Assembly (NCBI GenBank): GCA_047621865.1 | Contig: JBLHON010000001.1 | Location: forward strand, 1 to 39,351 | Length of the DNA stretch: 39,351 bases | DNA from: Crocinitomicaceae bacterium | Lineage (GTDB): Bacteria > Bacteroidota > Bacteroidia > Flavobacteriales_D > Crocinitomicaceae | Direction: 5' to 3' | Part shown: piece by piece, positions 775 through 4,377 of the stretch | Layout: each line of letters begins with the position of its first letter | Position numbering within the stretch: the first letter of the stretch is position 1 | Translations under genes and position numbers: made by a program | Notes under the pieces: generated by a model | Told to the model about the DNA's origin: nothing | Seen by the model: only the letters and a program-made list of their open reading frames with translations | Databases searched by the model: none

Positions 775-1299
775 CTAAATAAAGCGTTCGTCAACTTCCA
801 TTACATGTGAACAATTGTCACATGTTCGAAGTTCTTCTGAAGCATAAAAATCCTTGAATCGCGACAAGAAATCGTGAACTATATCTTCTAATGGGAATCT
901 GAATTCGTGCAGCTGGTGGTTGCATTCATCGCAGAACCAGAGTAAACCATCCATCATATCAGTGCCCTTTCGCACACGTTCAATCACAAGTCCAACTGTA
1001 TTCTCTCCACGCATAGGAGAGTGCGGGATCTTTCCTGGAAGTAAGAAAATATCACCTTCCTTGATGTGAATATCCTTTGCTTTGCCATCTTCTTGAATCC
1101 GGACCATGATATCACCCTCCAATTGATAGAACAATTCCTCGCTCTCATTGTAGTGATAATCTTTCCGTGCATTTGGCCCACCAACAATCATTACAATGAA
1201 ATCTCCTGCCTCAACATAAAGGTTCTTGTTTCCTACTGGTGGTTTTAGAAGATCACGATTGTCTTCGATCCACTTATTAAGATTAAAAGGTGCCATCAT
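775..1299 (-). CDS. nbaC: 3-hydroxyanthranilate 3,4-dioxygenase (cupin; kynurenine pathway / NAD de novo synthesis)
   Basis: 174 aa. The N-terminus FNLNKWIEDNRDLLKPPVGNK matches the family. Cupin metal-site context is present (DYHYNESEELFYQLEG ... IPHSP). A C-terminal rubredoxin-like CDEC...CDNC pair is found in bacterial and yeast HAO enzymes. Confidence 0.9.
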   Translation of the reverse strand: MMAPFNLNKWIEDNRDLLKPPVGNKNLYVEAGDFIVMIVGGPNARKDYHYNESEELFYQLEGDIMVRIQEDGKAKDIHIKEGDIFLLPGKIPHSPMRGENTVGLVIERVRKGTDMMDGLLWFCDECNHQLHEFRFPLEDIVHDFLSRFKDFYASEELRTCDNCSHVMEVDERFI

Positions 1300-1423
1300 A
1301 ACGTGCGATTTAAAGTGCTGGAGTAAAGGTAAAAAAAGATTGATTAATTTAAGTCGTAGATTTGATGAGTTCAGTATTGACGAACTCCTTCGCTCAACCT
1401 TATCCTACCAGCCGTCCCATGAT

Positions 1424-1825
1424 TCACTCAATCACATTGATGCGAACAGTATAACTGTGCTTAAGTTCCCCTCGGAAATACTCTTGAATGAGCACATCAC
1501 TTACTCCAACTGAAGTGGCATTATAGATATAATATCTCGTGGCTGCATCACCTCCAGACATTTCAGATTTCTTCAAATCATCATATTCAAAAATCTTTTC
1601 TTCAAGAGCGAGAACTGAATTGTCTTCAGAGGCTACTGAGACCTGGTTCCCAACAGATGTGTGAACATGTCCACCATAATAGAGTTTCTGACCAACTTTA
1701 ACGGTCATTTCTGACATGAATGGTATAATGCTCACCATATCTTTAGATGGCTTGAATTTTCCTTGAGCATTGCTCGAATTTGAAAAACTAAATACACTTG
1801 CTGCAATAAGAATAAACAATTTCAT
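1424..1825 (-). CDS. Small secreted hypothetical protein (signal peptide, beta-rich)
   Basis: 133-aa ORF with N-terminal signal peptide MKLFILIAASVFSFSNSSNAQ. I recognise no family motif with certainty. There is a faint resemblance to small chagasin-like beta-sandwich inhibitors. Confidence 0.55.
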   Translation of the reverse strand: MKLFILIAASVFSFSNSSNAQGKFKPSKDMVSIIPFMSEMTVKVGQKLYYGGHVHTSVGNQVSVASEDNSVLALEEKIFEYDDLKKSEMSGGDAATRYYIYNATSVGVSDVLIQEYFRGELKHSYTVRINVIE

Positions 1826-1929
1826 AGGCTTTGTTTTTACTTGTTAGAATGCAGTACAGTTACCCGTGAATTACGGATTGGAAATTCTCATTTTTAACGG
1901 AAAGTTAACGTATTATGGATTGAAGAAGG

Positions 1930-3282
1930 CTACAAAACCCGTGCAATCTCACTTTTCAATGGGATATTCAATGCATCCAAACTTCCATTTCGCGCCTTCT
2001 CTACAAATTCCAATTTCACGTCTGGTCTGAATAGCAAACAGTGAGTTGAACCACCAAAATGGAACATGCCCAATTGCTCGCCTTTTTTGACCTGTTGCCC
2101 AACTTCAACGGTTACTTGACACGAAGAAACTTCGGCCATCCCAATTGCCATAAAGCACATTAGACCAATTTTGGGATTGTCAGCCTCGATGAAAATGATC
2201 GCTCTAGTGGCAACAGCAGTAAGGAAAGCCTGTGAATCATTTGGTGCAGAATCGTCTGCGCCGGCAGGGTTTTTAAATCCTTGATATAGGTTTTCGAGGT
2301 AATAGCTGCCATTGATAATCGTGGCTTTTTTGATCGTGCCAGCAACAGGACTATGCCATCTATGATAACTCAAAGCACTTAAGAAAGCCTGATAAACAGT
2401 TCCACCAGCAAATTGTGGAGCATAAGAGTCCCAAGACAGCATATTATTCAATGAATAAGGCTGTTTCTTGAGCCAGAATTGAGCAGTTTCTTGCACATTC
2501 TCAACTACTTGAAGAGGTCCAGATTCGCACGCATTTACAATTATATCATCATCATCAGGGCTGGCTACAGGGCGAACACCAGCAACGAATTCACGCGTGA
2601 AGAAATCATCCCACGATTTGTAGCCATAGTATTCATCACTAGGATCACAGACGAAAAAGTCCTGAAATTGTTTTTCTTGACAGGCCTTTGGATCATCTTG
2701 TCCTTGACATGCCACGGAAACCATCTCATTCAATGCCGTCTCGCTCAACCATGGAATAACCTTTGGTGTTGCACTTGGGTCGCCTTCAACCAGCACATAG
2801 CGGGATGCTTCTGTTTGAAGAAATTTAGACCAATGCCGCAAAATCGTCTTGAATTGCTGATTCACTAGTGTATTTGAAAAAACAGTGTAGCCAGAAGCAG
2901 TTCCCATTGGCCAATCGAGAAGAGCGTTAATTGGGAAGCCAATTAATCCACAAGGATCCTCGATGCCTTTATTTTCACATTCAATATATTCTGGCGCCTG
3001 AACCATAATCTCATTGAGTAATTGCAGAAAATGATCAAAATCACGCACTTCTGGTTCGCCAGTTGGAGAGAGTTTTTTCCGACTCAAGGCTTCTTGAAAC
3101 ATGGCATACACGGATACATTCAGAGCGAGATCTGCCTGAACCATAGCCTTGAAATTTCGAATAGGCTCAATAAGCTCACGTGGATTCTTCTCAACTTTCA
3201 GGATCAAATTATGGATCCATCCATTTGTATGCATTGGATTTGTTGGGAGCCAACCTCCCGTGCGTTTTTCCTTTGTCGACAT
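1930..3282 (-). CDS. Phosphatidylserine-decarboxylase-family (pyruvoyl-dependent) decarboxylase, long PsiD-like form
   Basis: 450 aa. The C-terminal block IIFIEADNPKIGLMCFMAIGMAEVSSC..GEQLGMFHFGGSTHCLLF contains the G-S self-cleavage / pyruvoyl-forming site of PSD enzymes. Upstream blocks YYGYKSWDDFFTREF and YHRWHSPVAGTI also match the PSD fold. The roughly 200-aa N-terminal extension is as in the long fungal/bacterial PSD-like subgroup. Confidence 0.85.
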   Translation of the reverse strand: MSTKEKRTGGWLPTNPMHTNGWIHNLILKVEKNPRELIEPIRNFKAMVQADLALNVSVYAMFQEALSRKKLSPTGEPEVRDFDHFLQLLNEIMVQAPEYIECENKGIEDPCGLIGFPINALLDWPMGTASGYTVFSNTLVNQQFKTILRHWSKFLQTEASRYVLVEGDPSATPKVIPWLSETALNEMVSVACQGQDDPKACQEKQFQDFFVCDPSDEYYGYKSWDDFFTREFVAGVRPVASPDDDDIIVNACESGPLQVVENVQETAQFWLKKQPYSLNNMLSWDSYAPQFAGGTVYQAFLSALSYHRWHSPVAGTIKKATIINGSYYLENLYQGFKNPAGADDSAPNDSQAFLTAVATRAIIFIEADNPKIGLMCFMAIGMAEVSSCQVTVEVGQQVKKGEQLGMFHFGGSTHCLLFRPDVKLEFVEKARNGSLDALNIPLKSEIARVL

Positions 3283-3675
3283 AGTGAATCAGTTAATAGG
3301 GTTCAAAAACCTTACAGTAAACTTTAGTGTTTCGATCAAGGATCGACGGATGAAATTCTACAGTTAGGTGTTTTATTGTGATGGAAAGATACATAATTCA
3401 AAACGAAATCTTGATAAAAAGTGCGGAAAATACTACCCTTTGCCGTTTTTTGAATTTCGCTCGAAAAAAAATGAACATTTTGGAGGAATTGTGTCGAATT
3501 TCTTCGTTTTAATGCTTCTGGTCTCTTTCGTTAATCCCACTGAAATTAAACGTCAAGAGGGAAAGTTTCTGATTGTTTTTGTGAACCTAAATGTGACTCG
3601 ATCCCAAGTTGTTGCGGGTTTGTAATAGTGTTGGTAATGAAAATCATCCAAGTCTGGAAGGCGTATTTAAGAAGT

Positions 3676-4269
3676 TCATTCCTTCTCGTAAAAAAAGACA
3701 TTGCTCGAGTTCCAGAAGGTTGCACCACCTGGTTGATGATATAAATCAATGAAAATGAGGTATTTACCATCGTAAGAATGAGCGCCCTGAATCAAGTCCA
3801 CCTGAGTTGAGCTTTCTACACGGATTTCCTGAGGATGATAGACCAAGAATTGCGTGCGGCTTTCCGCATCTAGAGGATTGATGGATTCACGAGTTACTTG
3901 AATACTTCGCGATTCATAGTTGTGTTTCCCCCCAAAATCAATAGGACGATCGTAAGAAGAGGCAGTGTTAATCGAAAGTCTGAATTTACACGAATAGGTT
4001 CCACTTGTATCAACCAGTGTATCCAATCTAAGTTTACTGATTTCTCCAACAAGCTCAATTAATTCTTTCATTTCAACACGACTAGTGTAAAGCTCGTTCG
4101 TATCGATAATCATTGACTTGTCATCGTTCAATTTTGGAAGAAGGTCCCAGATAGGGTTGCTGAAATGAATGCTGTCCGTTTCAATAGACTTGATTGAATC
4201 TTCTTCTACTTGCGCGTTCAATCCCTTTGAAAGAAGCAGAATTGCAAGAACGAGATAGCTTTTTACCAT
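3676..4269 (-). CDS. Secreted hypothetical protein
   Basis: The ORF track extends to 4347, but that extension runs through the upstream terminator. The ATG at 4269 gives a clean signal peptide MVKSYLVLAILLLSKGLNAQ. No recognisable family. Confidence 0.6.
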   Translation of the reverse strand: MVKSYLVLAILLLSKGLNAQVEEDSIKSIETDSIHFSNPIWDLLPKLNDDKSMIIDTNELYTSRVEMKELIELVGEISKLRLDTLVDTSGTYSCKFRLSINTASSYDRPIDFGGKHNYESRSIQVTRESINPLDAESRTQFLVYHPQEIRVESSTQVDLIQGAHSYDGKYLIFIDLYHQPGGATFWNSSNVFFYEKE

Positions 4270-4330
4270 GCTAATTGATACACTCAATAGCTTTTGAGGT
4301 TCACTTTCAGCGAAAGAAAGTTTCAACATA

Positions 4331-4357
4331 AAAAAAGGCCGTCCCAATGAGACGACC
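4331..4357 (-). terminator. Rho-independent terminator of the 1354-aa adhesin-like gene
   Basis: On the minus-strand RNA, GGUCGUC-loop-GACGGCC forms 7 bp including one G-U pair, followed by UUUUUU. On the plus strand the same position would be a C-A mismatch, which supports minus orientation. Confidence 0.65.
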
Positions 4358-4377
4358 TTTCAAACTATTCGTTGATC

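Follow-up and report, generated by a model that had tools for sequence, protein, structure and literature searches.

A stand-alone PsiD/Ao-ADC1-type pyruvoyl decarboxylase gene near nbaC in a Crocinitomicaceae bacterium, with a substrate that is probably neither tryptophan nor arginine

The question raised by this locus is what its decarboxylase acts on. The window, as we call the whole 39,351-nucleotide stretch of Crocinitomicaceae DNA that was analysed, encodes at 1930-3282 on the minus strand a 450-amino-acid (aa) protein, P0001, which belongs to the phosphatidylserine decarboxylase (PSD) superfamily and lies two genes from nbaC, the gene for 3-hydroxyanthranilate 3,4-dioxygenase. An earlier note on this DNA, made from the sequence alone, had taken P0001 for a soluble decarboxylase of an aromatic amino acid or a kynurenine metabolite, citing the nbaC context and a likeness to PsiD. 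Our analysis leads to a different answer: P0001 is likely a cytosolic, accessory and horizontally moved pyruvoyl amino-acid decarboxylase whose substrate is probably neither tryptophan nor arginine. The enzyme family is a known one, to which P0001 adds a new and uncharacterised member; only two of its members have a known function, both of them fungal. These are PsiD, the L-tryptophan decarboxylase of Psilocybe cubensis (8X4Q, 8ZIA), and Ao-ADC1, a pyruvoyl-dependent arginine decarboxylase (ADC) from Aspergillus oryzae (PDB 9JER, 9JF5, 9JFN), of which 9JER carries the label 'PsiD-like domain-containing protein' (PMC12904898). A literature search found no characterised bacterial member, as the earlier note had supposed.

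The gene, taken from the open reading frame (ORF) list of the window, and its landmarks are as follows.

1930-3282, minus strand: gene for a PsiD/Ao-ADC1-type pyruvoyl decarboxylase proenzyme (P0001); predicted beta chain aa 1-411, predicted alpha chain aa 412-450.
2722-3168, minus strand: PF12588 (PSDC), N-terminal helical domain, aa 39-187 (Pfam, 1.9e-38), containing the pocket loop GLIGFPINALLDWPMGT (aa 112-128).
2014-2610, minus strand: PF02666 (PS_Dcarbxylase), catalytic domain, aa 225-423 (Pfam, 9.8e-38).
2044-2064, minus strand: FHFGGST motif, aa 407-413, with predicted serinolysis at Gly411/Ser412.
2362-2364, minus strand: codon of His307, in the motif YHRWH, aligning with PsiD His296 and Ao-ADC1 His332.
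3250-3252, minus strand: codon of Trp11, aligning with PsiD Trp27.

Searches of sequence and fold placed P0001 in the long, soluble branch of the PSD superfamily. The Pfam matches of P0001, like the NCBIfam match of the nbaC product, were far above chance level. The superfamily and the cleavage motif that had been read from the sequence are confirmed, and all of the conserved blocks quoted at that time (YYGYKSWDDFFTREF, ACESGP, SYHRWHSPVAGTI, IFIEADNPKIGL, IGMAEVSSC and LGMFHFGGST) are present in the translation. Against all PDB chains, the best sequence match was Ao-ADC1 (9JER; E 1.8e-77, 264 bits, aa 8-412), followed by PsiD (8X4Q; E 7.7e-56, 193 bits); E. coli PSD matched merely at E 2e-6, within aa 219-331. 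An AlphaFold2 model for which 34 homologs were used (pLDDT 79.8, pTM 0.81) gave the two enzymes in the reverse order in Foldseek, with PsiD (8x4q) at E 1.6e-26 and TMt 0.81-0.83 ahead of Ao-ADC1 (9jer) at E 3.4e-24 and TMt 0.78. Both alignments spanned some 390-400 columns and covered both domains; that to E. coli PSD (3e-9) covered the C-terminal catalytic domain only. The combination of PF12588 and PF02666 is shared with the cluster representatives of Ao-ADC1 and of PsiD-like proteins. These data support placement of P0001, by sequence and by modelled fold, in the PsiD/Ao-ADC1-type branch. It is roughly equidistant from the tryptophan and the arginine enzyme and, in the tree described below, falls within a bacterial clade of its own. 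The proposed kinship with PsiD therefore stands at the level of sequence and fold, while the closest solved relative by sequence is Ao-ADC1.

P0001 shares with Ao-ADC1 the two-domain architecture, the GGS-T motif, the catalytic histidine, the fold and a nearly identical pocket loop at aa 112-128, but the two proteins are only about 37% identical, in P0001 Leu and Asn stand in place of the acidic residues that the ADC1 clade has at 304 and 348, Ser383 is Ala, and Ao-ADC1 sits in a fungal clade whereas P0001 sits in a separate bacterial one. With PsiD it shares the architecture, FHFGGS, the catalytic histidine (His296 corresponding to His307), Trp27 (corresponding to Trp11) and the fold; identity is about 33%, however, most of the indole-contacting residues are changed, and PsiD belongs to a biosynthetic gene cluster whereas the P0001 gene stands alone. 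The canonical membrane PSDs (E. coli Psd, 6L06/7CNW, and the short Bacteroidota type, NF003678) have PF02666 and pyruvoyl chemistry through serinolysis at a Gly-Ser bond in common with it, but P0001 lacks their membrane helices and has an additional N-terminal domain of about 200 aa.

The catalytic features that would be needed for pyruvoyl chemistry are conserved. FHFGGST, His307 and Trp11 are invariant in an alignment of 34 bacterial homologs, and in alignments with PDB sequences the motif falls on G401-G402-S403 of PsiD and on the G441-S442 site of Ao-ADC1. PsiD forms its pyruvoyl group by serinolysis (PMC11929908); Ao-ADC1 is cleaved at Gly441-Ser442 and uses His332, its proposed general base, in self-cleavage (PMC12904898). 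By analogy with both enzymes, the P0001 proenzyme would undergo self-cleavage at the Gly411-Ser412 bond, His307 acting as general base. Ser412 would become the N-terminal pyruvoyl group of a 39-aa alpha chain, and this chain would remain associated with the beta chain of 411 aa. A free small substrate, most likely an L-amino acid, could then react through its alpha-amino group with the pyruvoyl carbonyl to give a Schiff base, and loss of CO2 from this adduct would leave a primary amine. The PF12588 domain would close the pocket at the site where membrane PSDs bind lipid. The sequence and the predicted fold together establish the architecture, the cleavage motif and catalytic histidine, the solubility and the closed-pocket loop of the protein.

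In PsiD, the substrate pocket is plugged by the N-terminal residue Trp27 (PMC11929908), and Trp11 is probably an autoinhibitory plug of the same kind in P0001. Because Trp11 is invariant in the bacterial homologs and its equivalent is present in the ADC1 representative too, it looks like a family-wide plug rather than a mimic of a tryptophan substrate. The database gene call for this locus (P0004, 434 aa) begins at Met17, omitting window 3235-3282 and with it Trp11 and a conserved GGWLP motif. Homologs align with P0001 from residue 4-9 or so onward, and the ATG at 3282 is the better start.

To define the substrate pocket, residues of PsiD that contact indole or tryptamine (L112, P114, Y117, F289, V292, Y338, L339, M373, T374 and I376; PMC11929908) were mapped to P0001 through a HMMER alignment, and the columns were tabulated by clade. 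The equivalents in P0001 are I114, F116, N119, F300, A303, N348/D349, M382, A383 and V385. The clades differed as follows.

PsiD-clade pocket: P116, Y119, M120, V303, T304, P-Y-L at 346-348, S350, L351, T383.
Ao-ADC1-clade pocket: the bacterial-type loop plus D304, D348, S383 and S/G409.
Bacterial-clade pocket: F116, N119, A120, A303, L304, N348, S350, Q351, A383, F/Y409.

Positions of the bacterial pocket were invariant or nearly so among the 34 homologs. P0001 has none of the PsiD indole-binding signature (P116, Y119, M120, V303, T304, L348, L351, T383), nor does it have Asp at 304 and 348 as in the ADC1 clade; the corresponding Leu304 and Asn348 are both invariant in the bacterial clade. 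Pocket composition thus probably points to a substrate other than tryptophan or arginine and, given a conserved pocket with neither the tryptophan nor the acidic arginine signature, a third amino acid or amine acid would be the most likely one. With respect to the substrate itself, we think that it probably lies outside the classes considered below; arginine appears unlikely, tryptophan or another aromatic compound (kynurenines included) equally so, and a serine-headgroup compound is less likely again. Two ascomycete proteins, P0136 from Colletotrichum spaethianum and P0137, carry the bacterial-type pocket (F116, N119, A303, L304, N348, A383) and are automatically named 'L-tryptophan decarboxylase'; going by these residues, the PsiD name has probably been over-transferred within the family.

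Phylogeny was consistent with a separate bacterial group. In an exhaustive HMMER search over 1.84 billion cluster representatives, 3580 clusters passed E ≤ 1e-3 and 393 of these also passed E ≤ 1e-30, and in a maximum-likelihood (ML) tree of 97 full-length rows P0001 fell in a clade of 13 rows (SH-aLRT 99) whose named members are all bacterial (Sulfidibacter, Halarcobacter, Plesiomonas, Photobacterium and Rhizobium). The characterised enzymes were placed in the tree through cluster representatives: P0195 for Ao-ADC1 (803 bits to 9JER, 36.6% identity to P0001) and P0160, from Mycena, for PsiD (nearest to PsiD at 358 bits, 41% identity to P0001). The tree was a quick one with a star-like backbone. 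It marks out a distinct bacterial clade and cannot be used to transfer a substrate.

The distribution of the gene is wide and patchy. In a survey of one genome per GTDB species, at least 552 species had a relative, and homologs at 60-69% identity were scattered over many phyla. Within the genus, 3 of 36 genomes had a homolog (58%, 58% and 44% identity), and among 300 other genomes sampled over the class two matched at E ≤ 1e-100. The copies in two of the congeneric genomes, G011 and G017, show 84% mutual identity and occupy a common locus that differs from that in the window, while the window copy is nearer to metagenomic contigs from elsewhere (68-69%) than to these two (58%). This difference in locus, together with the closer metagenomic relatives, suggests that the window copy and the G011/G017 copies were acquired separately. 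We regard the P0001 gene as accessory, horizontally moved and stand-alone.

Some homologs may be exported. About three of 120 close homologs (P0050, P0073, P0110 and probably P0054; 60-62% identity) have an N-terminal extension of some 60 aa with a twin-arginine motif, RRTFLKTAA..., which suggests that some lineages send the folded enzyme to the periplasm by the twin-arginine translocation (Tat) route. P0001 has no Tat signal. Ten longer homologs were checked for fusions, and apart from weak Tat signals no additional Pfam domain was found in them.

We put the chances as even that the bacterial clade and the ascomycete proteins sharing its pocket signature have a substrate specificity that would be the third in the PsiD/Ao-ADC1 family, with Tat export in some lineages. 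If so, these proteins would provide a route to a biogenic amine besides tryptamine or agmatine that is independent of pyridoxal phosphate (PLP). The clade, with many members in Photobacterium, Aeromonas and Flavobacterium, is widespread yet patchy, and its members are without exception mis-annotated as phospholipid enzymes. If the substrate were identified, bacterial metabolism would have one more amine-forming enzyme that works without PLP; such knowledge could be relevant to biogenic amines in food-spoilage genera such as Photobacterium and Aeromonas, and could yield new biocatalysts.

Several points weigh against the assignment of P0001 as an amino-acid decarboxylase for neither tryptophan nor arginine. 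Self-processing and decarboxylation by bacterial members are deduced from homology only, and the genome from which the window comes is merely 78% complete. Forcing the bacterial and PsiD clades together in the tree costs 32.6 log-likelihood units, and the AU test does not reject this arrangement (p-AU 0.205), so that the phylogenetic comparison proposed in the earlier note yielded a well-supported bacterial clade while leaving its union with PsiD compatible with the data. P0001 has a loop at 112-128 nearly identical to that of Ao-ADC1 and agrees with it at several further pocket positions, so that arginine or another basic substrate might be accepted. The clade-specific conservation of D304 and D348 suggests that these residues bind the guanidinium group in Ao-ADC1, and D349, beside N348, could replace the missing acid in P0001. 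Finally, no minus-strand terminator-like site was found between the decarboxylase gene, the 133-aa ORF that follows it and nbaC, and the decarboxylase gene may be co-transcribed with nbaC in this one genome.

Of the alternatives, the one that survives best is that P0001 is a second, accessory ADC like Ao-ADC1, making agmatine. We consider this unlikely. In its favour are the PDB search, in which Ao-ADC1 scored 264 bits against 193 for PsiD, and the pocket, in which the GLIGFPINALLDWPMGT loop is nearly identical and I114, F116, N119, F300, L301, A303, M382 and V385 are common to both proteins. The two acids specific to ADC1, however, are replaced at 304 and 348 by the invariant Leu and Asn, P0001 is just 36.6% identical to the representative of the Ao-ADC1 cluster, and the two proteins fall in separate clades of the tree. 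An ADC of the PLP type is, moreover, already present immediately upstream of an agmatinase gene on another contig. There (contig C20, L026:1282-3535), a gene for a 465-aa PLP-type ADC-like protein overlaps the start of the agmatinase gene (TIGR01230, 235 against 174 bits), and this pair is the ordinary arginine-to-putrescine route of the genome; with a PLP-type ADC and agmatinase present, a second ADC is not needed. An argument that would have favoured the arginine substrate, that the genome lacks another ADC, is ruled out by the same operon. A search for agmatine deiminase (PF04371) in the genome, at its 78% completeness, found none.

A role in lipid metabolism is less probable again. P0001 would then be a second PSD, or would act on a soluble serine-headgroup compound such as lyso-phosphatidylserine, glycerophosphoserine or O-phosphoserine. 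Membership of the PSD superfamily, whose catalytic motif P0001 shares, the name 'phosphatidylserine decarboxylase family protein' that databases give to P0001 homologs, and the Tat export signals of a few of these homologs are all consistent with such a role. P0001 scored far below the cut-off of each of seven NCBIfam PSD and archaetidylserine-decarboxylase equivalogs, however (best NF001941, 97.1 bits against 371), and it lacks a membrane-binding segment. The membrane-segment check called for in the earlier note gave a maximum hydropathy of 1.52 and no transmembrane (TM) segment, and because no 19-residue window of P0001 exceeds this value the protein is, by this measure, soluble. A bona fide PSD is also encoded elsewhere. 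The genome (3.63 Mb) carries three PF02666 genes, one of which, on contig C202, specifies a 221-aa protein with hydrophobic N-terminal helices (maximum hydropathy 2.59) that passes NF003678 (247 against 225 bits) and whose gene lies directly downstream of a 279-aa ORF judged by eye to be cdsA-like. This protein is the phospholipid enzyme of the genome, and no cdsA or pssA was found among the neighbours of the P0001 gene. Ao-ADC1, which has the same architecture as P0001, was reported to be without PSD activity (PMC12904898), and no neighbour for lipid synthesis was conserved over the 80 homolog loci described below. The matches to PsiD and Ao-ADC1 in sequence and fold, the equivalog scores below cut-off, the lack of TM segments and the separate PSD beside cdsA together support the conclusion that P0001 is not the housekeeping phospholipid enzyme, and they bear out the earlier description of it as a long-form soluble protein unlike the short membrane PSDs. 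The third PF02666 protein, on contig C280 (P0002; L003:1474-2790, minus strand; 438 aa), has PF02666 only, a FKFGGSD motif and a different N-terminal region of about 190 aa; it, too, scores far under all of the PSD equivalog cut-offs and is a further long, uncharacterised PSD-like protein.

The weakest alternative, that P0001 acts jointly with nbaC by decarboxylating tryptophan or a kynurenine-pathway metabolite, is very improbable, since it draws on an adjacency that is an accident of local insertion. The features on which this turns are the following.

775-1299, minus strand: nbaC, 3-hydroxyanthranilate 3,4-dioxygenase, 174 aa (Pfam 3-HAO family and NCBIfam).
1300-4377, no strand assigned: lineage-specific variable segment of about 3.1 kb with three unrelated genes, between nbaC and the gene for a 1354-aa protein with a type IX secretion system (T9SS) sorting domain.
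1424-1825, minus strand: 133-aa small protein; its N-terminus, beginning MKLFILIAASVFSFSNSSNAQ, resembles a signal peptide.
3676-4269, minus strand: orphan ORF with a start resembling a signal peptide (MVKSYLVLAILLLSKGLNAQ).
4333-4361, minus strand: strong terminator-like hairpin (13 pairs, then a T-run), lying shortly downstream of the 1354-aa gene and at the upstream edge of the inserted segment.

The local layout was as the earlier note had described it: the decarboxylase gene, a small ORF of secreted type and nbaC are all on the minus strand, separated by gaps of 104 nt (1826-1929) and 124 nt (1300-1423), and the identity of nbaC is secure (NF009763, 263.9 bits, cut-off 220). These short gaps between genes of one strand with no terminator-like site, together with PsiD as one of the two closest solved relatives and a union with the PsiD clade that the tree does not reject, are what can be said for a tryptophan or kynurenine substrate. 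In two congeneric genomes, however, nbaC and the 1354-aa gene ortholog are immediate neighbours. The order in G017 is nbaC, the 1354-aa T9SS protein ortholog, a 260-aa short-chain dehydrogenase/reductase and a 795-aa protein, with about 100 bp between the first two, and nbaC likewise abuts the ortholog in G008. Window positions 1300 to 4377 or thereabouts are therefore an insertion specific to this lineage, consisting of the 133-aa ORF, the decarboxylase gene and the orphan ORF (listed at 223 aa). Since the adjacency of decarboxylase and nbaC arises from this insertion, it is uninformative on the substrate.

The distribution of the two genes argues in the same direction. nbaC is a core gene of the genus, present in five of five genomes tested, against 3 of 36 for the decarboxylase, and in three other homolog-bearing genomes of the genus the two genes are on different contigs. 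From the species survey, the 80 best loci were taken with flanks of ±10 kb; tblastn detected nbaC at 0 of these 80 loci from other species, and ORF clustering over them revealed no neighbour family in common beyond genus-level synteny. Contexts were unrelated to one another: a TonB receptor, an integrase and GldN on a Bacteroidota contig; ABC-F, VF530 and a tdh/kbl-like pair (by Pfam domains) in Photobacterium; and type I CRISPR-Cas in Halarcobacter. The kynureninase of the genome is on another contig, the pathway being scattered, and tryptophan 2,3-dioxygenase (PF03301) was not found in the genome as far as it is complete (78%). In the pocket, the PsiD contacts are replaced (P114 to F, Y117 to N, V292 to A, Y338/L339 to N/D, T374 to A). 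The conserved linkage to tryptophan-catabolic genes, without which the earlier note was prepared to give up its reading, was thus absent, and an aromatic or kynurenine-metabolite substrate finds no support in the insertion, in the 80 loci or in a pocket devoid of the PsiD indole signature. The main outcome is in this respect negative: an attractive link to the kynurenine pathway is a chance product of insertion.

Clustering of the 80 loci had also returned a single neighbour 'family' present in several genera. This was an artefact, produced by a long antisense ORF that overlaps the target gene in high-GC genomes.

G+C is even at about 40% over the whole window. The flanking genes bear sorting domains of T9SS types A and B, which places the organism in the Bacteroidota. 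An AT-rich non-coding gap of about 390 nt (3283-3675) lies 5' of the decarboxylase gene. A scan for sigma-70 promoters gave 8 sites against a shuffled mean of 9.1, no excess, with a consensus that is ill-suited to Bacteroidota.

No Pfam or NCBIfam family matched the 133-aa ORF. Its own family is present in 15 of 36 genomes of the genus with a distribution independent of the decarboxylase, which argues that the two proteins are not parts of one system. Members are often tandemly duplicated (for example in G005, G010 and G030), and this genome has a second copy (G000:C66:319-642). The orphan ORF had no homolog in 60 related genomes. As listed at 223 aa, it begins at a TTG, and the hairpin at 4333-4361 overlaps this start (4269-4347); the ATG at 4269, from which translation would begin with the signal-peptide-like MVKSYLVLAILLL..., is more likely to be the true start.

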